A DNA stretch of 64,000 nt from the IMG/VR virus record IMGVR_UViG_3300028914_000001, positions 93,489 through 157,488 of that record; one strand, written 5' to 3'. Made by a program: the position numbers and the translations under genes. Below are positions 6,203 through 62,317 of this stretch, in pieces (within the stretch, counting starts at the first letter, position 1; each line of letters opens with the position of its first letter). The notes beneath the pieces were generated by a model that saw only the letters and a program-made list of their open reading frames with translations, was not told the origin of the DNA and searched no databases. This stretch comes from a virus (taxonomy: Duplodnaviria; Heunggongvirae; Uroviricota; Caudoviricetes).

Positions 6203-7894
6203 ATGAGAATGAACCCACTTTTTAACCATTACGCTTCCAAGCTAGATTTAACACTTCCGCAATACGAAGCGGTATGTGCATTGGCTAATTCCTTGTTTGA
6301 AGATGCGGCATCGACAGCAAAGCACAAGACAAAAAGAGCCATACGTAATGCATTGCCCGCATTTAACATTTTTTTCGATGAAATCGCAAAAGACGACGAA
6401 AAAAATCCGATATTGACTGAAAGAGGCAATACACAGACCGTACTCGAATATCTTGAAAATAATGTGAGGGCTACATTCTTCCACGACGGAACAACAAGTA
6501 TAAAGTTCGAGCCAGGCGCCGCTAGAATTGCTTACGGCGAACTTGGCATGCAAGCCCACGAGGATACTAGAAAACTTACTCTCCTTGGAAAGATACTACA
6601 AGAAATTTCGATAGCTCATGAAACCGAATACGACTCAAACCTAAACGGCATGACGTTCAATGAACTTAAAGACCGATTCGGTGCATCAATAAATAAAGCC
6701 GACGCCGAAACCGAAGAAAAGTTAAAAACCAAGACCTACGATAAAAGTGATTACATAATCAAATGGATTCCAGATTTCAGTACAGCACAACAGTATAGTC
6801 AATACACTGACTATGGGCCAAACGAACACTGGTGTTTGACTCATGATAAAAGAATGTGGGACAACTACACAGGCTCGCATAACGAAAACAAAGTATATTT
6901 CTGTCATGTTCCTAATTTCGAATCCGTTCCGAGAGAAATTGGACCTAATGCGCCGCTTGATGACTATGGACTTAGTTTGGTTTCCGTTATAGTAATGCCA
7001 GATAAGCACTTGCGAGCAGTAACATCTCGTTGGAATCATACTAACGGTGGTTCTGATGGCGTCATGAACAAGGAGCAATTATCCGATTTGCTTGGCGGAT
7101 ACGTATTTAACATTTGCCCCCCTTACAGCAGAGAAGAAGTCATCAAACGAGGATATATCTACCTGGACGAAGTTCAGCAAATGCTCGATGATGGTATTGA
7201 CCTGAGTAAATATATTGATGGTAAAGGGCGTATTAAGATTAATGACAAAATGAATATTCTGCACGGGCGGAAACTTTTGTCTGACCAATGGTTTGATTGG
7301 ATAGATGACTTCAGGAATGGATTCGCCCTTGTTCAATTGAATGAAAAAGAAAACTACATCGACATAGAAGGAAATCTGGTGTCCGACCAATGGTTTGAGG
7401 AGGTAGAGGACTTCGTTAATGGATTCGCTAAGGTTTACTTGAATGGAAAAACGAACTTAATCAACACAGCGGGAAAGCTACTGTCTGACCAATGGTTTGA
7501 TAGGATAGGTATTATCAAAAATGGATTCACCCATGTTAAATTGAATGGAAAATACAACTTCATCGACACAGAAGGAAATCTGGTGTCCGACCAATGGTTT
7601 GATGCTGTCTCATTCGATAATGGATTCGCCCGTGTTCAATTGAATGGAAAATACAACTACATCGGCACAGAAGGAAATCTACTCTCTGGCCAATGGTTTG
7701 ATGTGGTAGGGTGGTTCAGTGGTGGATTCGCCCGTGTTAAATTGAATGGAAAATACAACTTCATCGACACGAAAGGAAATCTTCTATCTGACCAATGGTT
7801 TGATGAGGTAGGTAGGTTCGATAATGGAGTCGCTGTTGTTCGATTGAATGAAAAATACGCCAACATCGATACAGAAGGAAATATAAGGCGGTAG
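6203..7894 (+). CDS. WG/KWG-like beta-repeat protein with the shared N-terminal module
   Basis: Six ~34-aa repeats (SDQWFD.v..F.NGFA.V.LNgKyNfIdteGN) at the C-terminus. Confidence 0.8.
   Translation: MRMNPLFNHYASKLDLTLPQYEAVCALANSLFEDAASTAKHKTKRAIRNALPAFNIFFDEIAKDDEKNPILTERGNTQTVLEYLENNVRATFFHDGTTSIKFEPGAARIAYGELGMQAHEDTRKLTLLGKILQEISIAHETEYDSNLNGMTFNELKDRFGASINKADAETEEKLKTKTYDKSDYIIKWIPDFSTAQQYSQYTDYGPNEHWCLTHDKRMWDNYTGSHNENKVYFCHVPNFESVPREIGPNAPLDDYGLSLVSVIVMPDKHLRAVTSRWNHTNGGSDGVMNKEQLSDLLGGYVFNICPPYSREEVIKRGYIYLDEVQQMLDDGIDLSKYIDGKGRIKINDKMNILHGRKLLSDQWFDWIDDFRNGFALVQLNEKENYIDIEGNLVSDQWFEEVEDFVNGFAKVYLNGKTNLINTAGKLLSDQWFDRIGIIKNGFTHVKLNGKYNFIDTEGNLVSDQWFDAVSFDNGFARVQLNGKYNYIGTEGNLLSGQWFDVVGWFSGGFARVKLNGKYNFIDTKGNLLSDQWFDEVGRFDNGVAVVRLNEKYANIDTEGNIRR
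7270..7885 (+). repeat. six ~102-bp tandem coding repeats
   Basis: GACCAATGGTTTGA recurs at ~102-bp spacing. Confidence 0.85.
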
Positions 7895-7940
7895 GGAAAT
7901 ACTCGACCCATCATCCTTTCTGAACGCTTTATAGCAAACA

Positions 7941-7968
7941 AAAAAGGCCCGACTATTAAAGTCGGGCC
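7941..7968 (-). terminator. intrinsic terminator closing the tRNA array
   Basis: GGCCCGACT-loop-AGTCGGGCC with an A6 run on the plus strand. Confidence 0.75.
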
Positions 7969-7999
7969 CATATGTTTTATCTTTCGGCTTTGCAATTAG

Positions 8000-8073
8000 T
8001 ACCCGAGACAGGGGTCGAACCTGTCACCAACGGTTTAGAAGACCGTCGCTCTAGTCCACTGAGCTACTCGGGC
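8000..8073 (-). tRNA. tRNA-Arg(UCU)
   Basis: Full cloverleaf, loop CTTCTAA. Confidence 0.92.
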
Positions 8074-8084
8074 AAGTTCATTAG

Positions 8085-8158
8085 TCGGCAGAGTGGGACT
8101 CGAACCCACAAAATCTTGGGTTTGAACCAAGCACGTATACCAGTTCCATCACCTGCCG
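8085..8158 (-). tRNA. tRNA-Leu(CAA), short variable loop (atypical)
   Basis: Loop TTCAAAC, Leu-type D arm, 5-nt variable loop. Confidence 0.8.
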
Positions 8159-8165
8159 AATTTAG

Positions 8166-8249
8166 TCGGTAAGGGGGGACTCGAACCCCCACGTCCTTAC
8201 GGACACCAGCCCCTCAAGCTGATGCGCCTACCAGTTCCGCCACCTACCG
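8166..8249 (-). tRNA. tRNA-Leu(GAG)
   Basis: Class II cloverleaf. Confidence 0.92.
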
Positions 8250-8267
8250 AGATGGAAATAAAAGTAA

Positions 8268-8349
8268 TCGGAAAGGTGGGACTCGAACCCACACACCTTT
8301 CAGCACAAGAGCCTAAATCTTGCGTGTCTACCAGTTCCACCACAATCCG
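8268..8349 (-). tRNA. tRNA-Leu(UAG)
   Basis: Class II cloverleaf. Confidence 0.92.
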
Positions 8350-8363
8350 AAAAAAAGTTATAG

Positions 8364-8436
8364 CAGGACGTGATGGACTCGAACCACCGACTAACAGTTT
8401 TGGAGACTGCAGACCTACCAACTGGTCGAACGCCCT
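8364..8436 (-). tRNA. tRNA-Trp(CCA)
   Basis: Cloverleaf, loop CTCCAAA. Confidence 0.92.
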
Positions 8437-8469
8437 GTAATGGATGGCCTTTCGGCCACCCGAATGAAA

Positions 8470-9807
8470 CTACTCTTCGGTGTTTCCATTCATCTTTTCG
8501 TACTCAGCAATGTACTTGAAGATACCGTCGCTGAATCCGTTGATGTGAATGAACTTACCGTATTCAATTCCGTTCTGGTACGTTGCTACGTTCACAATGT
8601 ACTTGTGCGGAATTCTGAGTACTTCCTTGCTGAAGTAGCTACCAGAAGACTGTTCGTCCGTAATGATAATCAATCGGTCGAACGGTCTGTTGTTAGCCTT
8701 GACAGCATCGTTCGTGCTTCTCTGGATGTCAGTACCACCCATAGAACGAGCACAACGGTCAGCAAGAGAGAAACCCTTCTCCGTGCAAAGATGTGCAGTA
8801 TTGTCAAAGGTGTAGACCTTCGTGAACTCGCACACTTCGTTCATGATAGCAGCGATGGAAGCTGCTGCCTGAGCACGGGTGACTTCGCCCTTGCCGGACA
8901 ACTGACAACTCATGGAACCCGACGTGTCAACCATGAAGAGAGTGTTCCCTTCAAGCTTGTCGAACGTTTCCCTGGCGGATTGAAGCATTGCTGCTTCAAG
9001 CTGCTTGGAGTATGTTCCAGCGCTGTACTTGTTGGCCGTATAGAAGTTGTACGGCATGACACCACGAACATTCATCTTCTCGATGCCATCCACGATTGCT
9101 CGTTGTGACACCTTTGCCTGCTCCATGTTGCGGAGGTTCCTCAACAGGGCAAGCGCACCGAGCCTGTTCTGGGAAAGAAGGTTCTCGAAGACTTCCTTCT
9201 TATCCTTGCCTGCGCTCAACTCAGTTTCCCAGGTAAGCGGTGTTGCAAGGCTGTCGTCCACAATCTTCTTGTAGAGAGCGTTCGTTTCGTCGTTCGGGGC
9301 CTTCGGGTGGCAAAGCATGACCGCATCCTTCAAGGAAACCGTCTTCTTCGTGCCCTTGTACTTACCGAACTGGTACTCGTCGAACTTGGCGAATGCCAAT
9401 GCGAGACCCTTCTGCAACTGCTTCGGCAACGTCTTCTTGCCTTCCGCAAGGAACATTGCAAGCAACTCGGTGATGTCATCAACACGGGTTACGGTCGAAT
9501 TGACAAGTTCCTTGGTAAGCTTGCCTTGCTGTGCAAGAACAGTCAGCATGAACAACGGGGTATGACGAAGGTGATATTCGTGTTTTACCTTGTTCAATGT
9601 TGCAATGGCGAACTCGGTGCTGACCTTGCCCATGTACTCCTTGATGCGGTCCTTGACCGACTGACCGTCCTCATAGAACGTATCCTCGTTCAAAAGACAG
9701 CTGAGCACGGTACGCTGCAGCTTCTCCTCGTAGCCAATGTGTGATGCCTTTCCACCCTCGTAAGTAGACACCGGGGTAGATACCTTTCTCTTGTTAATCG
9801 ACGCCAT
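8470..9807 (-). CDS. rsr: Ro60/TROVE-domain RNA-binding protein with C-terminal vWA
   Basis: TYEGGKA, LRHTP, AFAKFDEYQFGKY, LKDAVMLCHPK, TWETELS, ALLRNLRNM; MIDAS DTSGSM, GGT, IIITDEQ; AAGGAG RBS before MASINK. Confidence 0.93.
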   Translation of the reverse strand: MASINKRKVSTPVSTYEGGKASHIGYEEKLQRTVLSCLLNEDTFYEDGQSVKDRIKEYMGKVSTEFAIATLNKVKHEYHLRHTPLFMLTVLAQQGKLTKELVNSTVTRVDDITELLAMFLAEGKKTLPKQLQKGLALAFAKFDEYQFGKYKGTKKTVSLKDAVMLCHPKAPNDETNALYKKIVDDSLATPLTWETELSAGKDKKEVFENLLSQNRLGALALLRNLRNMEQAKVSQRAIVDGIEKMNVRGVMPYNFYTANKYSAGTYSKQLEAAMLQSARETFDKLEGNTLFMVDTSGSMSCQLSGKGEVTRAQAAASIAAIMNEVCEFTKVYTFDNTAHLCTEKGFSLADRCARSMGGTDIQRSTNDAVKANNRPFDRLIIITDEQSSGSYFSKEVLRIPHKYIVNVATYQNGIEYGKFIHINGFSDGIFKYIAEYEKMNGNTEE

Positions 9808-9853
9808 AATCATCTCCTTTGTTGATTAGGAATTGTTGATGTTGAAAAAATAT

Positions 9854-9992
9854 TGCCAGATGCCGGACTCGAACCGACAACTTCCTGCTTGGATTATCTA
9901 AGTAGCACATCCAACGCCACAGACCATATGGACTGGGAAAAAGCGAACGTGAACATTGAGGGCTGGCGCTCTACCTATTGAGCTAATCTGAC
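9854..9992 (-). ncRNA. tRNA-framed Y-like RNA 1 (139 nt)
   Basis: Acceptor GTCAGAT/ATCTGGC, D arm and TTCGAGT T arm; anticodon loop replaced by a conserved insert. Confidence 0.8.
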
Positions 9993-10002
9993 ATAAATGT
10001 AG

Positions 10003-10147
10003 TGCCGATGGAAAGATTCGAACTTTCAATAGTTTTTAGCTAAGTAACTCTCACTATCGCAGCGGTTTCCCGAGAAAAGCGCAAGAGGAACATTTCCCCT
10101 GCCAGTTATCAACCTGTGACACAGATTGACGGGGAAATAACATCGGC
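10003..10147 (-). ncRNA. tRNA-framed Y-like RNA, D arm replaced by a long hairpin (145 nt)
   Basis: Acceptor GCCGATG/CATCGGC, T arm GAAAG-TTCGAAT-CTTTC, insert with TTTTCTCGG-GAAA-CCG...TTACTTAG. Confidence 0.7.
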
Positions 10148-10160
10148 ATAAAAATTGTAG

Positions 10161-10294
10161 TACCATAGGCTGGATTTGAACCAACGACCACAAGTTCCTC
10201 ATCGAAGTAAGCCATTCAAACGTCACCTTTTCAGGGAAAAAAGACGAAAGGCGATTTCATATACTCGTGCTCTACCAGACTGAGCTACTATGGT
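10161..10294 (-). ncRNA. tRNA-framed Y-like RNA 2 (134 nt)
   Basis: Acceptor ACCATAG/CTATGGT, D arm, T arm; CGAGT/ACTTG stem enclosing the insert. Confidence 0.8.
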
Positions 10295-10301
10295 ATTTTA
10301 G

Positions 10302-10385
10302 AGGAGAGAACAGGGTTCGAACCTGCGTGTCGTTTCCGACAAAGCTTTAGCAAAGCTCCGCTTTTACCAATTCAGCCATCTCTCC
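10302..10385 (-). tRNA. tRNA-Ser(GCU)
   Basis: Class II cloverleaf. Confidence 0.9.
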
Positions 10386-10389
10386 ATAA

Positions 10390-10463
10390 TGTGCTTGGCC
10401 AGAGTCGAACTGGCGACCTACAGTTTAGGAAACTGTTGCTCTATCCAGCTGAGCTACAAGCAC
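10390..10463 (-). tRNA. tRNA-Arg(CCU)
   Basis: Cloverleaf, loop TTCCTAA. Confidence 0.92.
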
Positions 10464-10470
10464 AAGCGGA

Positions 10471-10752
10471 TTACTTCAATGTATCATCAGTGTATTCCAA
10501 CGATACCTTGTCATTGCCGAAAAAGATTTCGACAGTAACAGTGTAAACCTTTTCAGTGTTGTACCTGTCCCAAACTCGCCACAACTTGGCACCAACGGAA
10601 GCTGCGGCACCCTGGAAGATGTCGCATACGCTATTAAGGACATCCTTCTTAGGCAAGGTCGTATCTTTGCTATCGACCGTTTTAAGCAACTTCGCCATCT
10701 TGTCAGCAACGGCTGCCTTTACAGCATTAACATCATTCAATGATGCACTCAT
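10471..10752 (-). CDS. hypothetical protein inside the tRNA array
   Basis: AAAGGAG RBS before MSASLND, 93 aa. Confidence 0.75.
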   Translation of the reverse strand: MSASLNDVNAVKAAVADKMAKLLKTVDSKDTTLPKKDVLNSVCDIFQGAAASVGAKLWRVWDRYNTEKVYTVTVEIFFGNDKVSLEYTDDTLK

Positions 10753-10780
10753 ATCATCTCCTTTACTGTTTAACATTTCG

Positions 10781-10865
10781 AGCGCACGGTAAGAGTCGAA
10801 CTTACGTGGGCGTTCAGCCTAGAGGTGTTGCAGACCTCCCCCTTCGACCGCTTGGGTACGTGAGC
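10781..10865 (-). tRNA. tRNA-Cys(GCA) with long variable arm (atypical)
   Basis: Loop CTGCAAC, U73, 16-nt variable region, Tyr-like D arm. Confidence 0.8.
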
Positions 10866-10869
10866 AAAA

Positions 10870-11470
10870 ATCGCCATTCTCTTTATAACAAACCGAATGG
10901 CGAAGGCCGTGTATCCTTATATAGACACAATCATCCACGCTTATGTACACTAACATGGCCAGTTTTTCGGATTCACCGCAGGGAACAGTACCTGATTGTA
11001 ACAACGAAGACGTCTGTTATCTTGACTTAATGCACCTCTTGCAACAACATTGCTGTACCCGCCCTCATTAAGGACCTGCCTCTATTCGGAACGGCAGCTG
11101 CAATTCTTTGTCGGTACACATGGGCTTTAATACCCACATTCCTTCGTGCAATATATCCTGTTAGAAAGAACAGGAACTTGTGCATCATCTTCTTCCCTTG
11201 GCTTCCACACCTTGAATGAGAGCAGTCTGCCCTCACCGATTTGGGTTTAACTAATCGGGATGATGCATCGGGAATCACACGGATAGTAGCATGCCAGTCA
11301 CGGTGAACTATCTGCGTCCTATCCATAACTACCGCCAACTGCATTGTGGCGAAGACGGCAGTCATTTTTTAGTGATTGTGGAAAATCTTGTCGGCACCCG
11401 TTATGTGGCTTTCGCCGCAACCTTTGGCTTTTATAACGTGTCTTGCAACACATGACCATCTTTCAGTGCC
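10870..11470 (-). ncRNA. candidate large structured ncRNA (~600 nt)
   Basis: More than ten visible hairpins; no convincing CDS. Confidence 0.55.
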
Positions 11471-11477
11471 TATTTAG

Positions 11478-11550
11478 TTGGGGTAGCTGGACTCGAACCA
11501 ACGAATATGGGAATCAAAATCCCATGTCTTACCAACTTGACGATACCCCA
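11478..11550 (-). tRNA. tRNA-Gln(UUG)
   Basis: Cloverleaf. Confidence 0.92.
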
Positions 11551-11557
11551 GTAATAG

Positions 11558-11630
11558 TACCCCATCAAGGGTTCGAACCTTGGACCCGCTGATTAAGAGT
11601 CAGCTGCTCTTCCAACTGAGCTAATGAGGC
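11558..11630 (-). tRNA. tRNA-Lys(CUU)
   Basis: Cloverleaf. Confidence 0.93.
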
Positions 11631-11639
11631 GAAACTTCG

Positions 11640-11712
<73 letters not shown>

Positions 11713-11716
11713 ATAG

Positions 11717-11789
11717 AGCGGATAATGGGGTTCGAACCCACAACAACCTGCTTGGAGGGCAGGAACTCTACCAGTTGAGCTACATCCGC
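11717..11789 (-). tRNA. tRNA-Gly(UCC)
   Basis: Cloverleaf, U73. Confidence 0.92.
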
Positions 11790-12119
11790 AAAATTAGTTA
11801 ACCTTCGTGAATTCGAACCACGACACAGAACGAACCGAAGCCCGTTGTGCGCCAAACCTGGAGGCTAAGATTTGTGCACCAATCTATTGCACCATCAGCT
11901 CTTTGGGACGCTGACACCCCACCTTCATCTCGGGACGGTGCGAAACGCTATCTATTTGACACTCGCCAAGGCATAGAATTATCCTTATGTGAAGTTCACC
12001 CGCATTACCAGATACGGTTTTCGACGCCATATCCTTCCTGCCCTTTTTACTTCCAACTTTAGAGGCCGTTTGATTTGCAATGTCATCACAGTAAATAAAC
12101 GGTAAGAAAGCAAGATTCG

Positions 12120-12195
12120 TGGGCCCCCCGAGACTTGAACTCGGAAAACCTTCGGGTTATGAGTCCGCTGCTCTGACCTATTGAGCTAGAGGCCC
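12120..12195 (-). tRNA. tRNA with CAU anticodon, Ile2-like
   Basis: GGGCCTC acceptor typical of Ile2; weak anticodon stem. Confidence 0.7.
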
Positions 12196-12342
12196 AGAAA
12201 CAATTTGATTAGGATAGCACCAATGAGCAGCACGTTGTATTACTACAACTCGGTCTCACAGCTACCATTTCCCTCCCTTGGAGGAGAGCGTATTAAGCAC
12301 TCAGCATTACTACATTGAGTTCATTTATACGACTAATCTTAG

Positions 12343-12473
12343 CGCCAGCGGCAGGACTCGAACCTACGACCCCGAGCTTCCTAATGCTAAGTAACCCATT
12401 CCAAAACGCCACCCTTGCGGGAGAAAATGCGGACAGGTGTTGTACGTGCTCTAACCAACTGAGCTACGCTGGC
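12343..12473 (-). ncRNA. tRNA-framed Y-like RNA 3 (131 nt)
   Basis: Acceptor GCCAGCG/CGCTGGC, D arm, T arm; insert capped by CCC-GCAA-GGG. Confidence 0.8.
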
Positions 12474-12480
12474 AAAAAAA

Positions 12481-12575: not shown

Positions 12576-12585
12576 GAATTTCTAG

Positions 12586-12714: not shown

Positions 12715-12723
12715 GAAAAATTA

Positions 12724-12810: not shown

Positions 12811-12812
12811 AG

Positions 12813-12901: not shown

Positions 12902-12916
12902 AAATAAAATTGTTAC

Positions 12917-13195: not shown

Positions 13196-13201
13196 AAGTA
13201 G

Positions 13202-19328: not shown

Positions 19329-20198
19329 TCAAAGCAAGTCATTTTCCTTAGGCGGTGCCTTCGAGAACAGGTCGGAATCTCGTCCAAAACGCTTCTTGGT
19401 AAACGCCCTTTGTCCACCCGGCATATTGTGCCAACCGAACCACACCTTGTCACTATTGTCAAGATACATTGACGGAACACGACCATTGAACTTTACGTCT
19501 GCAATATACGCCATCCTGTTGGATAGGTCGGCATACTTTCTCTTGGTAGCTTCATTGTCTGCGGCTGACATACCTGCATTAAGCGGGTGCATGAGCGCCT
19601 TATCCAAGCAATACTGTCCGATAAGGTCAGCCGTTCCACCATGTGCCAAGGCATCATTTATTACGGGGTCGTTCTTGTAAGCAGCGATACCTGAACCACG
19701 GGTCAGGAACTTATGCTTCAAGCAGTCTCTTTCCCATTGGAGATATCGGCGGAAGTCAGTTCTATCCTTCCTGCTCTTATCAAACATCATATTGAGCCAT
19801 GCCTTCGCCTGTGCATCGGCATCGTATCTCTTTTCTTCGTCACTATATGTAGAATCCGCTGCGAAGTTCTTGATTCTCGGAATCCACGTTAGTTTGCTCA
19901 GGTCCACCTTATACCAGTCGTTCTCAGGCTCCCTTAGCTTATAGTGGTCTCTCACTTCCATCCACTTCTTGTTAAGCTCATCGTGTAATTCTTCATCAGT
20001 AGGGTGTTGAAGTTGTAGGAAATATGCGTACGCATCCATCCTCTCGTTGACTTCGTTGATGATGTCACCAATGTTCTCACCGTTAATCTTCGGCCTGTTC
20101 ATGGTAATCTTATACAGATTGCTGGTAGCTTCCAACTGAGCCGGGGTAAGTCCCAGCTGAGATATAGCTTCCATGAAAATTGCGTAGTTGTCCGTCAT
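19329..20198 (-). CDS. hypothetical protein with the shared N-terminal module
   Basis: FMEAISQLGLTPAQLEATSNLY. Confidence 0.8.
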   Translation of the reverse strand: MTDNYAIFMEAISQLGLTPAQLEATSNLYKITMNRPKINGENIGDIINEVNERMDAYAYFLQLQHPTDEELHDELNKKWMEVRDHYKLREPENDWYKVDLSKLTWIPRIKNFAADSTYSDEEKRYDADAQAKAWLNMMFDKSRKDRTDFRRYLQWERDCLKHKFLTRGSGIAAYKNDPVINDALAHGGTADLIGQYCLDKALMHPLNAGMSAADNEATKRKYADLSNRMAYIADVKFNGRVPSMYLDNSDKVWFGWHNMPGGQRAFTKKRFGRDSDLFSKAPPKENDLL

Positions 20199-21753: not shown

Positions 21754-23373
21754 CTATACATCACTCAGTATAGCTCTCAGGTCATCCATAGTGAATGTCT
21801 TTGCTTTAGCCAAGGCAGTGCAAAACGCCCATTTAAACGTATATTTTTTATCTAATAGTTTTTTGATAGCATTTCGTTTTTCATCAGTGACATTTGTCCA
21901 ACCAGCAAATAGGCCTTGGGTCATTTCGTTATATGCCTTATCCCATTTATCAGACAAGTCACTATTTTTAGCATTCACATAACAATCCTTCACAGCCTTC
22001 ATATACCGTTTGTTATTATCCGCTGTATTCCTCATCATTGATTTATAATCCAATCCCACTCTATGAGATAGTTCAATGTATGTATCATCAACCTTCTCTG
22101 GAATTAAGTCGAACAACTTCTCAGCATCAACTTCAAGGAATGCATTAATGTTATTTATAACGGTAAGTAAGTCCGGGACTTGATATCTGTTGGTCATCGC
22201 ATTTACGTCCAACAAGTGCCTTAGCATATCATCCTTATATTTCTTGTTTACATCACGAGTATCTTTAATAGCACGGGATATATGCCCTTCTTGTCCTTTA
22301 AACTTTGTGCTATCCTTTTGCATCCAAGGCCTATTGGATTTTGGCGGTATATAAGCCGCAGCAATCAATTCCTTAGGAGTATGCAAACGTCCGTCATTCT
22401 TCGCCGCATCATATTTCTCACTGCTTATTCTACAACTTTGATTTGCAATACACTTTGCTGTTTCATCCATTACCCATTTAAATTTGTCAATAGGAACTTC
22501 ATTAAAGGCCATATACTTATTAATATGAAGAGAACGAATTAAGCTGTCTATTGTATTCACCAGATACTTTGGCAAAAAATGTTGCGCCTCACTATACGTG
22601 GTCGAATAACTTGTATTATTTTTCCATACTACCCATGGTATAAAATTGCTAATTTCTTCAAGAACATGTTCGTCTTCTTTTTGCATTAAAGATAAGTTTT
22701 CTTTACCAATATCTTCTCCAAACACATCAATCTGATATTCCCCTTCCCTCGAAATACTCGGTTCTCCCTCATTAACCTTAAACATGCTACTCGCACTTCT
22801 CCTTCCAGATGGAAGTTTTCGCCTATCCATTTTATTGTATTTATCTTTATCAAGTGTAATTTTCAATGTATCAATCTTGTCACGATGCTGTGCTGGTGGG
22901 TTATATGGAATTTCATATTCATCATTAAAATTATCAGAGTTTCCAAAGTCACGCCCTTTACGAATCAATCTGGGCTTTTTCTTATTGAAATCTCTTAATA
23001 CAGGAATCATGTATGGATTAAGGGCAGTCCATACTACATTGTCATATTCGTTAGTATCGCCCGTGTTGCGCCCATAATTCTTATTTTGAATGGTTATGCC
23101 ATTATTCAGTATAGAGTCAACATTATCTGAATGCGTACGATGGAAACGCACCTTAACAGGATGTTGAGCTTTGTACCGTGCCAATTCGACATTTTTATCG
23201 GATTTACCCATGCGTGTATCTTTTGATGGCATATCTCCAGACCGCATGATAGATTTCATCTCGTATAACGGCTGTACACTTTCAAAACAAGCAGTGTACA
23301 AATCAGCACAACTTTTAACTTGATGAGGAGTCAAATCCATAGCTTTTAACGCTTCAATGAAATATTTTTTCAT
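21754..23373 (-). CDS. ADP-ribosyltransferase-like protein with the shared N-terminal module (paralog 1)
   Basis: VRFHRT..NVDSILNNGI ... VVWTALNP ... IDVFGEDIGKENL. Confidence 0.55.
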   Translation of the reverse strand: MKKYFIEALKAMDLTPHQVKSCADLYTACFESVQPLYEMKSIMRSGDMPSKDTRMGKSDKNVELARYKAQHPVKVRFHRTHSDNVDSILNNGITIQNKNYGRNTGDTNEYDNVVWTALNPYMIPVLRDFNKKKPRLIRKGRDFGNSDNFNDEYEIPYNPPAQHRDKIDTLKITLDKDKYNKMDRRKLPSGRRSASSMFKVNEGEPSISREGEYQIDVFGEDIGKENLSLMQKEDEHVLEEISNFIPWVVWKNNTSYSTTYSEAQHFLPKYLVNTIDSLIRSLHINKYMAFNEVPIDKFKWVMDETAKCIANQSCRISSEKYDAAKNDGRLHTPKELIAAAYIPPKSNRPWMQKDSTKFKGQEGHISRAIKDTRDVNKKYKDDMLRHLLDVNAMTNRYQVPDLLTVINNINAFLEVDAEKLFDLIPEKVDDTYIELSHRVGLDYKSMMRNTADNNKRYMKAVKDCYVNAKNSDLSDKWDKAYNEMTQGLFAGWTNVTDEKRNAIKKLLDKKYTFKWAFCTALAKAKTFTMDDLRAILSDV

Positions 23374-23382
23374 AAGGTACCC

Positions 23383-25083
23383 CTATACATACTGCAATTT
23401 GGTTTGCAGCATATTAAACCATTTATTAGTAGCATCGCCTGTCATACCAACGCAAAACGCCCATTTAAACGTATATCTTTTATATAATATTTGTTTTAGA
23501 ACATTGATTTTTTCATCTGATGCCCTATCCTTAAACCTATCTTCAAACAATTCATCACGTAATTTATGCCATTCCTCATATACATCACTATTTTTAGTTC
23601 TTGTATAAAACTCCTCTATACCATCATATAAGGCATCATCACCCTGCCTACCATTATGCATACGTCGTGGTATGGATTCACGGATAAAACTTTCTAAACA
23701 TGGCTTAAACATGTGAATCGACTCATCATACAGGTCTTCTATAAAACGACCAACAGACCAAAACAAACTGTTGTACTTCCTCATACCGCCGTGCGGCGTT
23801 TCTTGTATAGCGTCATCCGAGTGTAGCACATTCATTATAGGGGCATCGTACATCTTATCAGTAAACGAACGTTTATCCCTGCTTATGTCACGAGTATCCC
23901 GCACCGAACGAGATATATGACCTTTTGCCGCCTTGACATTAGACCTGCCTTCAAGCTCTTCCCCCATCCAAGGTCGATTAGATTTCGGCGGTACATAACC
24001 AATTTCCACAACCTCATCAGGACTAATAGGATAATCAACACCTGACGTACGCTCTTTAAATCGTGAACTACTTATTCGATATGGGTGCTGGGCTATGCAC
24101 TTTGAAGTTTCCTGCATTACCCATTTTAATTTTTCGAATGGAACATGAAAGTTGCCACTATTCACTTTCAGTACATACGGCACTTCAGTTACCCGGAAAA
24201 ATTTCCATTGTTCAATCAAGCTAGATATTGAATTTAACAAATAAGATGGCAAAAACTTTTTTACTTGGTTAAAGGTAGTCGAGTATCTACGCCGATGACC
24301 ATCTGCATCAACAACCCATGCAATAAAATTTTCAATTTCTCGAATCACATTTTCATCTTCTTTTTTCATAAGAGATATATTCTCTTTGCCAATATCTTCG
24401 CCAAACACATCTATTTTGTAAGGTCCCTCATGAGAAACACTGGATTCACCTTCGCCAACTTTTTTCATATATTTTGCGCTTTTTCTTCCATCTGGAAGCC
24501 ATCTTCTATCCATTTTATTGTATTTATCTTTATCAAAAGTAAGCTTTAACGTGTCAATATTCGAACGGTATCGTGCTGGAGGATTATATGGATATTCATA
24601 TATATCCTCGTCATCTTCGTCGGGTTCAACCCAATTACCCTTTTCATCCCAATGCGGACGGATTGCTTTATGTAGCAATATAGGTTCTTTTTTGTCGAAT
24701 TTTCTTAATACGGGTATGTTATCTGGATTAAGAGAAGTCCAGACAACAGGGTCATACGCATTCGCATCTCCAGTATTACGTCCATAATTATCATTCTGGG
24801 TCTTTAATCCAGTATTCAGTATTGAATCTACATTACCCGCAGCGGTACGATGGAACCGAACCGTAACAGGATGTTTCGACTTGTATCTTGCCAATTCGAT
24901 ATTTCTATCTGATTTACCAACACGTTTACCTTTTGTATCTGCATCACCAAAGGTAAGCGTATCTTTCATTTCATATAACGGATGTACACTTTCAAAACAG
25001 GCCGTGTACAAATCGCCACAACTTTTAACTTGGCTAGGAGTCAAATCCATCGCTTGTAACGCTTCAATAAAATCCTTTTTCAT
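23383..25083 (-). CDS. ADP-ribosyltransferase-like protein with the shared N-terminal module (paralog 2)
   Basis: VRFHRT..NVDSILNTGL ... VVWTSLNP; clear tandem paralog of 21754..23373. Confidence 0.55.
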   Translation of the reverse strand: MKKDFIEALQAMDLTPSQVKSCGDLYTACFESVHPLYEMKDTLTFGDADTKGKRVGKSDRNIELARYKSKHPVTVRFHRTAAGNVDSILNTGLKTQNDNYGRNTGDANAYDPVVWTSLNPDNIPVLRKFDKKEPILLHKAIRPHWDEKGNWVEPDEDDEDIYEYPYNPPARYRSNIDTLKLTFDKDKYNKMDRRWLPDGRKSAKYMKKVGEGESSVSHEGPYKIDVFGEDIGKENISLMKKEDENVIREIENFIAWVVDADGHRRRYSTTFNQVKKFLPSYLLNSISSLIEQWKFFRVTEVPYVLKVNSGNFHVPFEKLKWVMQETSKCIAQHPYRISSSRFKERTSGVDYPISPDEVVEIGYVPPKSNRPWMGEELEGRSNVKAAKGHISRSVRDTRDISRDKRSFTDKMYDAPIMNVLHSDDAIQETPHGGMRKYNSLFWSVGRFIEDLYDESIHMFKPCLESFIRESIPRRMHNGRQGDDALYDGIEEFYTRTKNSDVYEEWHKLRDELFEDRFKDRASDEKINVLKQILYKRYTFKWAFCVGMTGDATNKWFNMLQTKLQYV

Positions 25084-25815: not shown

Positions 25816-26349
25816 CTACACCGTCGCTCCGCCACCAACGTCGGCACCACCGCCTCCGCCGCCATCGTAACAGCCTACTGCACATCCCTGCTTGTACGGC
25901 GAGTAGTTCATCCTGTTCGGGGATGCATATCCAGTCACCATCGGCTGAGCTGTCGTGTTAAAACAATTTACTGGATACTTGCTGGGCAGATGGTCCTGAG
26001 CCCTTTCCATCATCTCCCTGATTTTAGGGTCAGACTTAACCTTGCCACGCTTCCATTGAATCTTCCCTGGGAACAACTGTTTCATTTCTTCCTTCGGGTC
26101 ACGGTTGGCGTTCGGATTAGTGGATAGGGTCATCGGGTTCTTGTACGCACCCATGTCGTTGGAATGAGAACCGTTAGTTGCCATCGGCGCCTGAATTGCG
26201 TCATGGATGTTATGGTTCTCAGCCATCGGCAACGTCAGATGCTGTTCAAAGCCTTCAAAACAAGCCTTACACAGACCCGTGAGGGCTTCCATCTGGGCTT
26301 CGGAAAGACCTAGCTTTCCAATAGATTCAAAAAACAGTTTCGTGTTCAT
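25816..26349 (-). CDS. hypothetical protein with the shared N-terminal module and Gly-rich tail
   Basis: FFESIGKLGLSEAQMEALTGLCKACFEG. Confidence 0.75.
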   Translation of the reverse strand: MNTKLFFESIGKLGLSEAQMEALTGLCKACFEGFEQHLTLPMAENHNIHDAIQAPMATNGSHSNDMGAYKNPMTLSTNPNANRDPKEEMKQLFPGKIQWKRGKVKSDPKIREMMERAQDHLPSKYPVNCFNTTAQPMVTGYASPNRMNYSPYKQGCAVGCYDGGGGGGADVGGGATV

Positions 26350-55592: not shown

Positions 55593-57155
55593 TTAAAACG
55601 GTTGATTTTCATCCGTTTGGCTAGTGTCACTATTGCCACCAAGATTTGGCAATTCTTCGCTCGTATTTTCACTAATCTTGTCTACTTGGCCAATGTCGTT
55701 GATGTCCGGCCCAGTACCAAGGTCGGCGCCAGCCATGCCTGTATCCAGGCCGCCCGTGCCGTCATCCATACCAGGCATTCCTGTATCCATACCAGCCATG
55801 CCTGTATCCATACCGCCAACGCCGCCTCCAATGCCGCCTCCAATGCCGCCCGTGCCTGCATCCATACCGCCAGCGCCTGCACCTCCCATTCCAGTTGCAG
55901 CAGTACCATCGTCAGGAAGACCCATGCCTGAATCCATATTTTCTTCACTGTTCGTAGTCTCACGGCCTTCACCCTTACGAGCAGCCATTTCCTGCATCAT
56001 TTTGTCGCTATACAGCCATGACTCAAACTCCAACGCAGAGTTTACATCGTTAGATTCAAGGAACCGACAGAATGCTTCGGCTTCCTTTTCATAAACCATT
56101 CCTTTGAATTGCTTATAGAAGGTCTGGAATTCTTCAAGCTTTTTCACAGGCGACCAGTCCGTCATAATTCCCTGCGTACCCTTGCTAATCTGTTTTCCCG
56201 TCGGCATCAATCCTTGGTGATTCTGTCTCGCCTCATTAGCCATTTTGTCCGCCAGAATGTTTGTCAGTCTAGTAAAACTTCCGTTTTGTGAACTATCCTG
56301 AGACACAGTCGTGCTTAGCTTCTCTAGACAGTAGTCGACAAAGTTTACCTCTTTGTTAGGACCTTCAAGGTCGCCTCCAAGGCCCGCATTCCCACCAGTG
56401 GCACCACCAGCAGCGTTGCCGCCCATTCCTCCTGACATGTCAGGAGCCATGCCAGTTCCATTATCCGCAGGAGCGGCAAAATCGGCTTCGCCAAACCCTC
56501 CGTCAGCACCACCCATGTCAGATTCCATGATAGCATTAGCGATATTCAGTAGACCACGCATATCAGCATCCATTATAGGCTGATATCCGTTTTCGTCCGT
56601 AGAATAGATATTATCTTCCTCAGCCATTTCGTTGGCTTCCTTAATCGCATCATCGCAACACTGCAGAATAGTCTGTCCAAACCCGTCTATATAGTGTTCT
56701 GAATCCAACGAGAGTTCAAACATTTTTTCAACGAAATCATCGACATTATACTTAATCGTTATGTTTCCGTTATCGTTAGGATATAGCATATCAACGACAA
56801 CAGAGTGGTTTTTCCTATTCATCTTGAACTTAGCATGTGCAGAGTCACATACTACATTTCCTAGGTCAAGACGGAACAAAGACTGACCAACAGACTGTGC
56901 GACCGCCTCTGTCAGAGCCTTGTTCAAAATTGTCTGTATCGTCGTGTATCCGTGAGGGTTACAATCCTTGTTCACCTTCTTTGCGAGGTCTCCCCAATTA
57001 ACACCCTTTTCGCCACGGACATGTTTGCCCTGAATTGATGCAACAATATTCTTCATCGTCTCGATTGGCACAGCTTTGGCGGGTTTTACCGGGCCGCTTT
57101 CAGTGTGGACGTATGCAAACGTGCTGTTGTTATTCATACTTATGAACTCCGACAT
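55593..57155 (-). CDS. acidic protein with Gly/Met-rich (DTGM) repeats
   Basis: GMDTGMAGMDTGMPGMDDG; TATAAACTA at 57172-57180. Confidence 0.75.
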   Translation of the reverse strand: MSEFISMNNNSTFAYVHTESGPVKPAKAVPIETMKNIVASIQGKHVRGEKGVNWGDLAKKVNKDCNPHGYTTIQTILNKALTEAVAQSVGQSLFRLDLGNVVCDSAHAKFKMNRKNHSVVVDMLYPNDNGNITIKYNVDDFVEKMFELSLDSEHYIDGFGQTILQCCDDAIKEANEMAEEDNIYSTDENGYQPIMDADMRGLLNIANAIMESDMGGADGGFGEADFAAPADNGTGMAPDMSGGMGGNAAGGATGGNAGLGGDLEGPNKEVNFVDYCLEKLSTTVSQDSSQNGSFTRLTNILADKMANEARQNHQGLMPTGKQISKGTQGIMTDWSPVKKLEEFQTFYKQFKGMVYEKEAEAFCRFLESNDVNSALEFESWLYSDKMMQEMAARKGEGRETTNSEENMDSGMGLPDDGTAATGMGGAGAGGMDAGTGGIGGGIGGGVGGMDTGMAGMDTGMPGMDDGTGGLDTGMAGADLGTGPDINDIGQVDKISENTSEELPNLGGNSDTSQTDENQPF

Positions 57156-57175: not shown

Positions 57176-59515
57176 TTATAACGTCTTGGTACCCAAAAGC
57201 ATCGGCAAACGGTGTTGCCAACGCAACACGAAATTGATTTGGTCCTCGTCCCAGTCATCACCCCCGACATAATCCATGTAGTCGATACAGGTTACGACAT
57301 TCGTGTCCATCACACACACCCGCTGTCGGCACTCATGGCAGAACATCGAGAGTTCCGCAGCAATATGGTCATCGCCGATTATATAACCATTCAGTATTCG
57401 TACACGAAGAATATCTGGTATCATACTCGCCCTGATTGCAAATACGGGCCCGCCAAGAATCGCCACATCGGTAAGCTCGCCAAATCCTAGTTCCCCGATG
57501 ATTTTCTTCGTACTGTTGTCCTTAATCGACAATCCCTCATAGCAACCGTAGGAGTCGTGACTGTCATGCCAGTTGAACGTGTTAGGAATAGTTTTCCAGC
57601 CATATGTTCCAACCATACCCACATCAGTTGGAAGCTTGTCAAGTTTTTCCTTCCAGAATATGTCAGAAATACAGGTAGAACTGTCCATGAACATGAACCA
57701 GTCAGGAGGAACGCTGAATGTCACTTCCTCCATCTTGAACATGCCGGAGAACAACGCCTTTACACTAAGGGAAACCCTATCCGCACTGTTTTTCTTTGTG
57801 AAGAAATGGTTCGGATGATACACATAATCGTATGTCTTGTATCCGCCATCAAATCTCTTGTACAGGTCAACCTCTCCCCTCTTGTAAATGCAACGGAAAA
57901 TCTGCGGTGATGTCAACGACTTGACCACATCATTGTTCGTAACGGCACTGCACTTAACGGGAGTCAACCCAAGGATATTCCTCATCTTGTTGTCATGGTC
58001 GATTTCCTGCTGTCTAATCCTCTTCAACAGACGCTTCTTTTCCGACATGACAAGACGGGGTTCGTTAATCTTCGTGTCAAGTGCAAGGGTAACATCATCG
58101 TCCGTAACTTCGTGGTACTGATACGGACTCTTCTTACGCATATCGACATACTTCTTGTGCATCATGAGGATTGAGAACTTTCCCTTCTTATAGCGTTTGG
58201 CATTCTCCTCCTTGTCAATCTTCAATTTCTTCCTGATAAATTCATGGGTGATGTCGATAAAGTTCCCGCCCTTGATTAGGGCCTCGATATCGACATAGTT
58301 GATGCCGACCATGACTTCCTTAATCTTCTGAGAATGATAGGTATACCACGTCATTATATTGCCCGAAGCAAGCTTGACATGAACTTTCTCACTGTTCTTT
58401 GCGTATGTATCAATCCACTTGTCGTTAACACCGTATCTGTTCTTGATATGCTTCCTTGTTATGAACTCCTTTCCAAGTCCATACAGTATTCCGCAATCCC
58501 TGTCATAAATGTACTTGTCAAGGTCTTCCACAAGGAACATGGCAAACCCTTTTCCTGAACGGCTCAACTTGGCGCCATTGGCTTTTCGCACAGGCTTTAT
58601 CAGTTTCTTTTCATACCTCGCCCGCAGCCATTCCTTCTTCGATGCACCGACATATATCCTAGCCATATCGCTGGAAATAATGTCCTTCAACGGGTTGTAA
58701 ATAGCGATATCACCAGCATGTGATGCAATGAACTTTCGTATATCATCGGACGAGTAGCGGTCTGTAACATAACCATCCATCGTCTTCATCTTACGTGGCT
58801 TATACACTGCAAAGAATTCGTTAGATTTCGCCGTATTTCCAATAATGTCAAGAACATCCTCGAAGGAAATCGTTGCGTTAGCCTTTGCCACAATATCAAG
58901 AAAACGGTTATGACGATAGTACACGTCAAGGTCTTTCTTGTAGTAAACGACGTGCTTCTCTCCGTCTGTAGACATCTGTTCCTTGAATGGAATGTCCTTA
59001 ACAATCGACTCAAACTGTCCCTGGGACATGCCGAGGTATTCTGCGGCTTCCATCCTACCGAACGTGGAGAACGGAAGGTCTTTCCTTCTAAACTCTATGG
59101 ACAGAAGTTTGCACCGTTCCACCACCTCTGGTTCACGGTAAAGCCTGTCCCCATTACTATCGAGAATGTAGAATAAGTTGTGAAGGATATCCCTGTCGAT
59201 AACCCATTCTACCGTGCGGTTGAGGTTTCGGCAAATGTATTTCAAACTGATATACTTTACATTGTCCTTCAACACACGGTCAGCTTCCGAAAGTTCGTAC
59301 AGCCCGTACTCAACATTCGCTTGGAGTATCTTTTTAGTGTCCGTCGGTATCTCGTACTTTATCTCGTCATAGTTAACCTTTCCTTCGGATTCATTCCGAA
59401 GAAAGTCCATGGCAGCAATCTCCTCGTCATTGACAACGGGAGATATGTCGTAGTCAGATGCAAGAGCAAGAGTGTCTTGCGGTAATTTCCAAAGTTCGTC
59501 GTGTTTAGGATTCAT
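57176..59515 (-). CDS. multi-HTH-like protein with a C-terminal GT2-like domain
   Basis: EAAEYLGMS HTH; C-terminal ISDIFW...VGMVGTYG...VAILGGPVFAIR pattern. Confidence 0.5.
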   Translation of the reverse strand: MNPKHDELWKLPQDTLALASDYDISPVVNDEEIAAMDFLRNESEGKVNYDEIKYEIPTDTKKILQANVEYGLYELSEADRVLKDNVKYISLKYICRNLNRTVEWVIDRDILHNLFYILDSNGDRLYREPEVVERCKLLSIEFRRKDLPFSTFGRMEAAEYLGMSQGQFESIVKDIPFKEQMSTDGEKHVVYYKKDLDVYYRHNRFLDIVAKANATISFEDVLDIIGNTAKSNEFFAVYKPRKMKTMDGYVTDRYSSDDIRKFIASHAGDIAIYNPLKDIISSDMARIYVGASKKEWLRARYEKKLIKPVRKANGAKLSRSGKGFAMFLVEDLDKYIYDRDCGILYGLGKEFITRKHIKNRYGVNDKWIDTYAKNSEKVHVKLASGNIMTWYTYHSQKIKEVMVGINYVDIEALIKGGNFIDITHEFIRKKLKIDKEENAKRYKKGKFSILMMHKKYVDMRKKSPYQYHEVTDDDVTLALDTKINEPRLVMSEKKRLLKRIRQQEIDHDNKMRNILGLTPVKCSAVTNNDVVKSLTSPQIFRCIYKRGEVDLYKRFDGGYKTYDYVYHPNHFFTKKNSADRVSLSVKALFSGMFKMEEVTFSVPPDWFMFMDSSTCISDIFWKEKLDKLPTDVGMVGTYGWKTIPNTFNWHDSHDSYGCYEGLSIKDNSTKKIIGELGFGELTDVAILGGPVFAIRASMIPDILRVRILNGYIIGDDHIAAELSMFCHECRQRVCVMDTNVVTCIDYMDYVGGDDWDEDQINFVLRWQHRLPMLLGTKTL

Positions 59516-59594: not shown

Positions 59595-60548
59595 TTACGA
59601 GAACACGTTCATTCCAGCGTTCAGGGCTAGCCTAACGTCATCGTCAGCAACACCGTTGTCCAGCGAACTGGGCTGGGACAGCATTTCCTTGGTAACGTCA
59701 GGGCTGTTGTACACCTTGTTCTGGGACAGTCCCTGCCCAAGGGCTTCAAACGCAGCAGACTTGCTGCCGAAGCCGACGGAGGCTAGTTTGGGCGCAGGAC
59801 GCATCCTTTTGCTGACAGCAGCGCTTCCACCAGCAGGATACCTGACCTCGTTAACTGCGAGGTTATTCTTCCGATAGTTCGTCAACCCGTTGTCCATGAT
59901 GTCGTCATGCATCAGGCCGTCGGCTATCTCGTTCAATTCGTTCATGTCAATTTGGTTGGGAGCCTTTATTTCACCGATTCCGCTAAACTCCCTGCTAGAA
60001 GTCTTCTCGTCTTCAATCCCGTTTATGTACTTGAAAATGTCTTCACGTTTAAGGTCATCAAGAGAAACATCTCGGTTCGGGTCAGTGAAGTATTCAACCG
60101 CCTTCTGCTGGAGGTCTGGACGGTAACCGTTGGTTTCACGGAGAACCTTGTCTTCAATCTTCGCATACATGAGCTGCTTCATAGCACGCTTGTATTCGAC
60201 CACTTTCTCTTGAAGTTCCGCCTTCAACTGTGCAACCGCTTTCTTCGCTTCTCTTTCCCGTGTAGTTTCTATCTGACACTCTTCGAGGACATTCACAATC
60301 TTTTGCAACGCCTCAAACAAATGTCCGTTGACGGCGTTGTCGCCCATGTTGTCAACCTTTTTCTGAACAGCTGGTTTTACCAACGCATCGAATTGTCCAG
60401 ATACCGCCTCGACCAAGGACTTGAACTGTCGGTCGCCCTTCGCCTCGTAGTCGGATATAGCCTTGCTATACCCACCCTCAATCTTCGATGCAATCTCGGG
60501 GGATATAGTACCAAGTTCTTCTTTTGTTAAGATGTCTGACAGTTGCAT
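59595..60548 (-). CDS. prohead scaffolding protein (T4 gp22-like)
   Basis: Acidic coiled coil directly after the protease gene. Confidence 0.6.
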   Translation of the reverse strand: MQLSDILTKEELGTISPEIASKIEGGYSKAISDYEAKGDRQFKSLVEAVSGQFDALVKPAVQKKVDNMGDNAVNGHLFEALQKIVNVLEECQIETTREREAKKAVAQLKAELQEKVVEYKRAMKQLMYAKIEDKVLRETNGYRPDLQQKAVEYFTDPNRDVSLDDLKREDIFKYINGIEDEKTSSREFSGIGEIKAPNQIDMNELNEIADGLMHDDIMDNGLTNYRKNNLAVNEVRYPAGGSAAVSKRMRPAPKLASVGFGSKSAAFEALGQGLSQNKVYNSPDVTKEMLSQPSSLDNGVADDDVRLALNAGMNVFS

Positions 60549-60557
60549 ATTGTCACC

Positions 60558-61283
60558 TTATCCACGCAAATTGTTGAGTAGAGCAATCCTGTTATAGCAA
60601 TGACACTTATTAGTGCGGAAATCAATGTTGCGGTTCATAACAACTTCCTTGCGGCAACGGTCAATAGATTCTGTAAGAATCTTGTGAGCCTTCCTCTTGC
60701 CTGCATCGCTTTCGAAGTGGCTAGTGATTAGGGCCTTATTGTCGAAGCTCGGGTTTCCTACAACGTCAACAGTAATCAAAGTGTACTCAGGGTCAATTTC
60801 TTCATAACCTGTGGGAAGTTCGATGGTATCGCCTGCTCCACGCAGAGAGTAGCCGGGAGTATATCCCGCCTTGATGAGGCCAGCAAGATTTCGACCCGCA
60901 TCAGTATCCTCTGCGACAACCATTCGGCAGTAAAGATTCTTTCCGTCCATACGGAGTTCCTCGATTACTGCACAGGTCTTCCACAAGTTCATTTCGAAAA
61001 TCGGGTAATCTTTCGGGTTTCCTTCCATGTCTACACGAGGGTGGTTCAATTCAGCCGCCAATCGTCCAAGAGGAATCTTCGTCTTGTTCAGCTTCGCAAC
61101 TTCCCTGGCGATGATTGCACGAGGATATGAACGACCGTTGATACCCGGTTCGTCACAGACAATAGCCGTGCCTTCCAGGATAAGTCTCTTAACCTTATTT
61201 CCATAAATGTCGGTACGTTCGGCGACAGACACCTTGCTGTCATCGAAATTAGGTACGCTAATGATTTCCCGCATCTTTCCCAT
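60558..61283 (-). CDS. prohead core protease (T4 gp21-like)
   Basis: NGRSYP, AAELNHP, GYSLRGAG and ITVDVVGNPS motifs. Confidence 0.92.
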   Translation of the reverse strand: MGKMREIISVPNFDDSKVSVAERTDIYGNKVKRLILEGTAIVCDEPGINGRSYPRAIIAREVAKLNKTKIPLGRLAAELNHPRVDMEGNPKDYPIFEMNLWKTCAVIEELRMDGKNLYCRMVVAEDTDAGRNLAGLIKAGYTPGYSLRGAGDTIELPTGYEEIDPEYTLITVDVVGNPSFDNKALITSHFESDAGKRKAHKILTESIDRCRKEVVMNRNIDFRTNKCHCYNRIALLNNLRG

Positions 61284-61296
61284 GACGCTCCCCTAC

Positions 61297-61476
61297 TCAC
61301 ACTTTCTTGGGTGAGTTAATACTTTCCATGACTATCTTGGTTTTTTCCTTCATGCACATACTATACACGGACTCCATATAGGCATTGACCATTTTTTCCA
61401 CATTGGTGGAGTCGCCGTTAAGCAGATAGCTTATCAGCGAGCGTGCGTCATTGTCTTTAAGTCCTGGTATGGCCAT
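61297..61476 (-). CDS. small prohead-core-like protein (59 aa, MAIPGLKDND...)
   Basis: Hand-translated; lies between TATAAACTA (61509-61517) and the protease. Confidence 0.6.
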   Translation of the reverse strand: MAIPGLKDNDARSLISYLLNGDSTNVEKMVNAYMESVYSMCMKEKTKIVMESINSPKKV

Positions 61477-61579
61477 TACTGAAAACCAATAATCATTACA
61501 TTCGTATATAGTTTATAATAGAGAGCGTCGGGCCAATATCTCTCGATACTGACCCATACCCTAAAATACGTTTTTTCTA

Positions 61580-62317
61580 CTAAATTCCGTTCTCGTCAGG
61601 TGAAATATTCTCATCGGGAACAGGAGGCAACATAGGCTCCTCCACTGGATTCTCCTGAACAGGCGCCTGAGCCGGAGTAGCAGGCTCTTGTTTCGGTGTC
61701 ACTTCTGCCGGAACGTGGTATGTCCTTGCCGCTTTTAGTATAGTCATCCAGTTTGTCATCACTGCGGTAAATGCCGCCAGCAAATGTTTGCATACCCGAT
61801 TCTTGTGCTGCGGGTCCCTTACCTTAGGCGCAATGTCTTCACCTCCCGAAGGGACTCCATCGATAGATTCGTAGCCAGAAAGGTAGCTGTCGTAAATATG
61901 TTTTAGGTTGTACTTCATGCCGCTCCAGTTGAAGTCCGGGCACGTACAGAATACCTTGACATCACATGAACGAAGCAACGCAATCTTCTTTGCAGGCGCC
62001 ATCGCACCTTGCGCCTGACTGAACAACGTCCCCTGCTTCGGTATGAACTCGATGTATACATCATAGTTCTTCTCGTTGCTTGCCGAAGGAACAACAAAGT
62101 GAACGACCGCATGACCACTTTTCGGGTCTCTTGTCAGGTCGTTATAGTGGAATGTAAGGGTCTTGCTCCTGTATTTCCTTAGGTTATCCGCCGCCCCCGA
62201 AAGGTCTGCCATAGTAGCCTCGAAGCACGCATCGTACAGACGAGATACGCTCTCATACTGACGCATACTTAGACCTAGATTGCCTACGGCTTCCATAAAG
62301 ATTTTCTTCTCGTTCAT
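61580..62317 (-). CDS. SWIM-like Zn-finger protein with the shared N-terminal module
   Basis: CTCPDF...VCKHL; FMEAVGNLGLSMRQYESVSRLYDACFEA. Confidence 0.75.
   Translation of the reverse strand: MNEKKIFMEAVGNLGLSMRQYESVSRLYDACFEATMADLSGAADNLRKYRSKTLTFHYNDLTRDPKSGHAVVHFVVPSASNEKNYDVYIEFIPKQGTLFSQAQGAMAPAKKIALLRSCDVKVFCTCPDFNWSGMKYNLKHIYDSYLSGYESIDGVPSGGEDIAPKVRDPQHKNRVCKHLLAAFTAVMTNWMTILKAARTYHVPAEVTPKQEPATPAQAPVQENPVEEPMLPPVPDENISPDENGI

Follow-up and report, generated by a model that had tools for sequence, protein, structure and literature searches.

An N-terminal module shared by unrelated phage proteins

The stretch of DNA analyzed here (hereafter the window; 64,000 nucleotides) corresponds to bases 59286-123285 of a 175,176-bp IMG/VR viral contig, the completeness of which was estimated at 42% by CheckV. 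The genome of this phage should be about 420 kb, because its closest complete relative (G001) has a genome of 419,423 bp with direct terminal repeats. Eight open reading frames (ORFs) of the window encode proteins that begin with the same short module, which we read as a probable capsid-targeting tag, and the window also carries the gene of a prohead maturation protease related to gp21 of phage T4 (Table 1).

The module, F-x6-[LM]-x-L-x3-Q-x-E-A-x3-L-x4-F-E, was found without gaps in the translations at all eight starts proposed by the initial annotation, 4 to 7 residues after the methionine. The claim of a common ungapped N-terminal module was thus borne out, as were the two deviant ends, ITMN in the ORF starting at 20198 and TFPE in the ORF starting at 21449. 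In the latter, the Glu is displaced by one residue (TFPE↓D), and the orthologue in G001 ends with AFQE↓D. The start codons chosen earlier for the ORFs 26349 and 49900 were kept, since their spacing from the late-promoter-like motif described below fits better than with the longer ORFs.

A 30-column hidden Markov model (HMM) was built from the eight window copies and run on the contig translated in six frames (2,948 segments, all of them included). The eight copies scored E values of 2.7e-16 to 1.2e-11, and three further N-terminal copies were detected outside the window (E 2.8e-8 to 9e-4), while no other segment of the contig fell below E 4. A wider profile added a weak twelfth copy. The profile scan of the genome that the initial annotation had proposed therefore recovered its eight copies and raised the count on the contig to 11 strong copies and one weak copy. 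The conservation lies at the level of the protein, because the DNA of the module is on average 45% identical and the non-paralogous copies use different codons at 297 of 490 identical residues (61%).

Table 1. Features of the window and tagged ORFs elsewhere on the contig. Positions refer to the window unless preceded by "genome"; the arrow marks the predicted cut.
Feature	Position	Strand	Basis or remark
Tagged protein, 563 aa, WG-repeat body	6203..7894	+	WG_beta_rep 2.6e-25
Module codons of the 6203 ORF	6218-6307	+	end LFE↓D
Tagged protein, 289 aa, body without assigned family	19329..20198	-	module 20091-20180
Tagged small acidic protein, 64 aa	21449..21643	+	module 21467-21556
Tagged protein, 539 aa, paralogue of 23383..25083	21754..23373	-	module 23275-23364, end CFE↓S
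Tagged protein, 566 aa, paralogue of 21754..23373	23383..25083	-	module 24985-25074, end CFE↓S
Tagged protein, 177 aa, body without assigned family	25816..26349	-	module 26248-26337, end CFE↓G
Tagged protein, 1357 aa	45827..49900	-	module 49793-49882, end LFE↓G
Tagged SWIM-type zinc-finger protein, 245 aa	61580..62317	-	module 62213-62302, end CFE↓A
Tagged ORF outside the window	genome 57245-57784	-	30-column HMM
Tagged ORF outside the window	genome 58744-59295	-	30-column HMM
Tagged ORF outside the window	genome 136557-137921	+	30-column HMM
Weak twelfth copy	genome 26032-26703	-	wider profile, E 0.012
Prohead maturation protease, T4 gp21 / S77 family	60558..61283	-	Peptidase_S77, phrog_207, 5jbl
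Candidate scaffold or core protein, 317 aa, helical	59595..60548	-	position and composition
ATAAACTA sites	6177, 20222, 20581, 26356/26362, 33915, 34525, 36325		
ATAAACTA sites	41659/41682/41713, 49931, 53511, 57172, 61509		
Motif before the 6203 ORF	6177-6184		
Motif before the 20198 ORF	20222-20229		
Motif before the 26349 ORF	26356-26363		
Motif before the 49900 ORF	49931-49938		30 nt before the ATG (49900)

Structural models agree with the earlier suggestion that the tag is helical and longer than that of T4. AlphaFold2 predicts for the 539-aa protein a helix at residues 2-11, a turn and a second helix at 16-31 (predicted local distance difference test, pLDDT, 70-84); residues 33-58, behind the second helix, are disordered. 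The model of the SWIM protein has a mean pLDDT of 81; its two helices span residues 3-12 and 18-31, and the Glu-Ala bond is contained in a non-helical break at 32-35. In these models the helix-turn-helix is set off from the body of the protein.

Bodies of the tagged proteins

As had been claimed, the bodies behind the module are unrelated save for the pair 23373/25083 (BLASTP E 6e-141); no other pair matched at E <= 0.1. Pfam and PHROGs gave nothing for most of the tagged bodies or for the neighbouring head-region proteins, and the 1357-aa protein was assigned to no family by Pfam or PHROGs and had no match in Atlas. Two of the labels given to bodies in the window hold. The WG repeats of the 6203 product were recovered by the WG_beta_rep profile (Table 1). 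The CxC...CxH ligands of the SWIM protein (C124, C126, C176, H178) do not vary among 35 orthologues, and in BFVD its fold matches SWIM-type proteins of two jumbo phages, BcepSauron and Motura (E about 1e-5), as well as an uncharacterised protein of vB_EamM_Y3. This protein had no Pfam match at E 0.01, and a Foldseek search of its model against the PDB returned nothing significant.

The ADP-ribosyltransferase (ART)-like fold attributed to the pair 23373/25083 was not confirmed. The two proteins have no Pfam or PHROG match, the leads in Atlas (DarT/PARP/Tpt1) are weak with template-modelling (TM) scores of 0.27 or less, and the reading failed because a confident model is lacking, the AlphaFold2 model of the body being poor (mean pLDDT 57). 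What is constant in this family is the motif RFHRT, which is invariant, and the 539-aa member carries a second conserved site, LYE↓M, after the module. Tags and bodies have evidently been shuffled, to judge from their sequences, because the orthologues of the pair carry two tag variants (FIEALKAMDLTP... and MLTLLESIGLTP...) and because in one relative (P0079, alignment A4) the N-domain with RFHRT is fused to WG repeats like those of the 6203 product.

Distribution of the module in related phages and in protein databases

Nineteen related loci were fetched by means of the protease gene (57-91% identity). Profile searches detected at least 14 copies of the module in the complete 419-kb genome of G001 and at least nine in a relative with a protease identity of 73%, while three genomes with a protease of 57-62% identity yielded no copy at E <= 0.01. 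In the whole 253-kb genome of G004, one to three diverged candidates were seen below the threshold, with no expanded family. At two loci with a protease identity of 57-58% (L016:4557-4943 and L019:6833-7189), small proteins encoded upstream of the protease start with a shorter, diverged module, which ends with CIFE↓A or CLLE↓S. Because of these two proteins, the sequences suggest that the tag predates the 420-kb clade.

Among 1.84 billion representative proteins, the clusters retrieved by the profile at E < 1e-3 numbered 64, of which five are repeat artefacts and about 59 are real. The bodies of 58 clusters fall into 26 groups unrelated by BLAST. Two cluster bodies are SLT lytic transglycosylases, above the Pfam cut-off, and the genome-57745 family gave weak peptidoglycan-binding matches. 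The distance from a methionine to the start of the module is 2-9 residues in each of the 86 distinct copies. About 14 copies are seemingly internal; they all come from a single sub-family, which has an additional domain upstream. In the member of this sub-family encoded by G001 (L027:697-2175, + strand), at which the promoter motif was checked, the module of a long ORF is preceded by a conserved N-domain of 55 aa and, after it, a variable insert. The DNA coding for "SDKLI" reads GATAAACTA, which is late-promoter-like and lies about 30 nt upstream of an internal ATG; from this locus an isoform with the module at its N-terminus would therefore be made. The end of the module is duplicated in this sub-family (TNACMEGV), and the duplication points to the scar of a cassette recombination within the module.

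The end of the module and the protease

The gene at 60558-61283 encodes, as previously proposed, a gp21-like protease. Its product matches the Pfam profile PF03420 (Peptidase_S77) at 2.8e-13 with 50.2 bits for a cut-off of 27, phrog_207 at 1.9e-30 and the structure of T4 gp21 (PDB 5jbl) at 3e-7, and its His (ELNHP) and Ser (GYSLRG) align to the active-site positions of gp21. We presume that this is the enzyme that removes the tag. The tagged SWIM gene lies directly upstream of the protease gene. Directly 3′ of it follows a gene for a protein in which x-x-E sites followed by A or S are conserved, among them LFE↓A and AFE↓A; its position and composition lead us to infer a scaffold or core protein, and its place is one that we take to match that of the scaffold gene in T4.

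The end of the module has the features of a cleavage site. Column 28 is Glu in 76 of the 86 distinct copies; column 26 (P3) is C/L/I in 80, column 27 (P2) is F/M/L/Y in 82, and the residue that follows (P1′) is A/S/G in 68, often with acidic residues behind it. Across the 59 clusters, F2 and the terminal Glu are the sole nearly invariant columns. The published cut motifs are L/I-x-E for T4 and A/S/G-x-E for phiKZ/SPN3US; since P3 and P2 of the module differ from both, the specificity of the protease is one that we infer.

The SWIM protein allows the same position to be followed in orthologues. Its Glu33 is invariant in 35 of them, down to 33% identity. The distant orthologues possess a leader of 13-17 residues ending with hydrophobic-x-E, which is followed by A/N-N/T-M in the same columns. 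Because the Glu is invariant despite the differing leader lengths, it marks the boundary between a variable leader and what we take to be the conserved mature protein. To judge from this alignment, the 27-residue module sits where the distant orthologues have a short T4-like leader.

A late-promoter-like motif upstream of tagged genes

The motif ATAAACTA, which resembles the late consensus of T4, TATAAATA (PMC1524935), has 17 occurrences in the window where 1.9 would be expected (9-fold enrichment). On the contig there are 32 copies, 28 of which lie 3-32 nt (80 nt in one case) upstream of an ORF starting with ATG. Seven of the ORFs that follow the motif are tagged genes; others among them encode large proteins without known function and one protein with tail-fibre-like collagen repeats. 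The remaining tagged genes sit within runs of genes on the same strand. By this match to the consensus, the tagged genes look late. Several of the sites form divergent back-to-back pairs; in the pair 26356-26363 / 26362-26369, the two motifs overlap by two bases and share a 6-bp core (TAAACT/AGTTTA).

Comparison with known systems

In T4, the internal proteins and Alt enter the prohead core by means of an N-terminal capsid-targeting sequence (CTS) of 10-20 residues, and gp21 cuts after its Glu (PMC5694885, PMC3012670). The CTS of IPI, IPII, IPIII and Alt and its removal by gp21 go back to Mullaney and Black (1996), as related in PMC5694885, PMC3012670 and PMC10052503. The module shares with the T4 CTS its N-terminal location in otherwise unrelated proteins and its hydrophobic-x-Glu end. 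The phage, like T4, encodes a gp21-family (S77) protease, its tagged genes are apparently late and its cargo is diverse and mosaic. Unlike the CTS of T4, however, the module has 27-30 residues, which is outside the 10-20-residue range, and is made of two helices; its site is mostly Cys-Phe/Met/Leu-Glu, and the number of tagged proteins per genome is at least 12 to at least 14 here as against a handful in T4. The module is likened to the T4 CTS by its features, and the function given to it here is a deduced one.

In the giant phages SPN3US and phiKZ, N-terminal propeptides are cut off after A-x-E by a protease related to gp21, and the residue at P1′ is a small one (PMC10052503). These phages and 201phi2-1 resemble the present one in their size class, the gp21-related protease, the cut after Glu and the preference for a small P1′ (PMC10052503, PMC5694885), and the giant-phage paralogues gp53 and gp54 have an identical N-terminus that was likened to the CTS (PMC10052503, PMC5694885). 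The propeptides of SPN3US, phiKZ and 201phi2-1 differ from the module in that they carry the A-x-E motif, are mostly 111-254 residues long and are not a portable module common to unrelated proteins; furthermore, their protease belongs to family S80, whereas the one encoded here belongs to S77. A literature search, itself incomplete, yielded no account of tag families expanded in this way among uncultured giant phages.

A probable capsid-targeting propeptide

We consider it probable that the module represents a lengthened form of the T4 CTS and acts as a cleavable propeptide for capsid targeting, because at the level of sequence it behaves as expected of such a tag, apart from its length, its fold and the residues at P3 and P2. 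The core of the idea put forward in the initial annotation, namely an N-terminal, helical tag ending with Glu, is therefore retained after these tests, while the ART-like label given to the bodies of the pair 23373/25083 could not be confirmed. The novelty is smaller than had been implied, since the tag is a longer variant of the known T4 mechanism.

We propose the following sequence of docking, cleavage, packaging and injection. The tagged proteins would be made late, and each would dock by its two-helix hairpin to some component of the core or shell of the prohead during assembly. The protease encoded at 60558-61283 would then cut after the Glu that closes the second helix, at [C/L/I]-[F/M/L/Y]-E↓A/S/G, so that the tag is shed and the mature protein set free within the capsid. 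Some of the cargo (cell-wall enzymes, possibly host-modifying enzymes) would leave the capsid with the DNA at infection.

Several observations weigh against a cleavable propeptide. The Glu is absent from the standard column in 10 of the 86 copies, and the 20198 protein (ITMN) has none before residue about 41. With mostly Cys at P3 and an aromatic residue or Met at P2, the site is unlike the published motifs of T4 and phiKZ/SPN3US, and the length of the module is about double that of any T4 CTS on record. The T4 profiles Gp23 and Portal_T4 matched nothing on the contig, so that sequence comparison revealed neither the major capsid protein nor the portal. Finally, megablast and tblastn searches of cultured phages returned no usable relative.

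The copies devoid of Glu would be explained if the module were an uncleaved docking or oligomerisation domain, with a structural Glu, and its hub were, for instance, an intracellular assembly or a virion part outside the head interior. A compact helix-turn-helix could well be a stable binding domain, and SLT enzymes, which are among the tagged bodies, occur as tail or baseplate components in other phages. We nevertheless regard this explanation as unlikely: it leaves aside the conservation of the Glu together with a small P1′ and a disordered or acidic linker behind them, the invariance of the Glu in orthologues with completely different leader lengths, and the occurrence of the same tripeptides in the scaffold candidate, with one tagged gene immediately upstream of the protease gene.

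Alternatively, the propeptide would be cleaved and would serve mainly to hold enzymes, for instance the transglycosylases, in an inactive or folded state until the prohead protease acts, rather than to target them. Some bodies, such as the SLT enzymes, are indeed potentially harmful, and T4 propeptides also have chaperone-related roles (PMC10052503). This is a more doubtful proposition still, because a single sequence would have to act as inhibitor or chaperone for 26 or more unrelated folds, among them those of an acidic peptide of 64 aa and of a protein of 1357 aa, and the long disordered linker speaks against an intramolecular inhibitor. Conservation as a DNA or RNA element (a recombination linker or a translation-initiation region) or as an export leader was rejected as very improbable on the basis of the codon differences and of a direct reading of the sequences: the TNACMEGV duplication does show recombination within the module in one sub-family and orthologues can bear different tag variants, but the DNA of the module shows an identity of only 45%, the module has neither the hydrophobic core nor the double-glycine motif that are typical of export leaders, and the genes look late.

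A wider form of the propeptide reading can be advanced tentatively, as possible though short of probable: the module would be a portable cargo-loading domain for one defined prohead site, by which a phage of ~420 kb would deliver 15 or more different enzymes and effectors into the host cell with its DNA, new cargo being recruited by recombination at the tag and by internal late promoters that give tagged isoforms. If the propeptide reading is true, a sequence rule becomes available to list the capsid-borne, probably injected proteome of an uncultured giant-phage clade, a cargo mostly without known function. It would also illustrate how a leader of the short T4 type can develop into a docking module folded as two helices, and large capsids could be loaded with foreign proteins by means of a second tag, one of defined structure. 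The finding extends a mechanism known since 1996.

Other genes of the head region and of the window

Between the SWIM and protease genes, a 59-aa ORF (61297-61476, - strand) is preceded by its own late-promoter-like motif and presumably occupies the place of the small prohead core genes 67 and 68 of T4. Upstream of the SWIM gene, a 545-aa ORF has no PDB relative. Between the scaffold candidate and a 520-aa protein lies the gene of a 779-aa protein (57176-59515, - strand) with a weak glycosyltransferase-like match at its C-terminus and a strong terminator-like hairpin before its start; considered as a capsid protein, it does not look like one. Two low-complexity proteins are encoded near the head genes: the 520-aa protein (55593-57155, - strand), which has Gly/Met/Asp-rich stretches and a late-promoter-like motif, and a 218-aa protein with QQGYP repeats (53598-54254, - strand). 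Distant relatives encode Gln/Pro/Gly-rich low-complexity proteins just after the scaffold gene, in a place similar to that of the 218-aa protein. At the other end of the window, an array of 36 tRNA genes (7999-16712, - strand) covers most amino acids, with short non-coding stretches between the genes.

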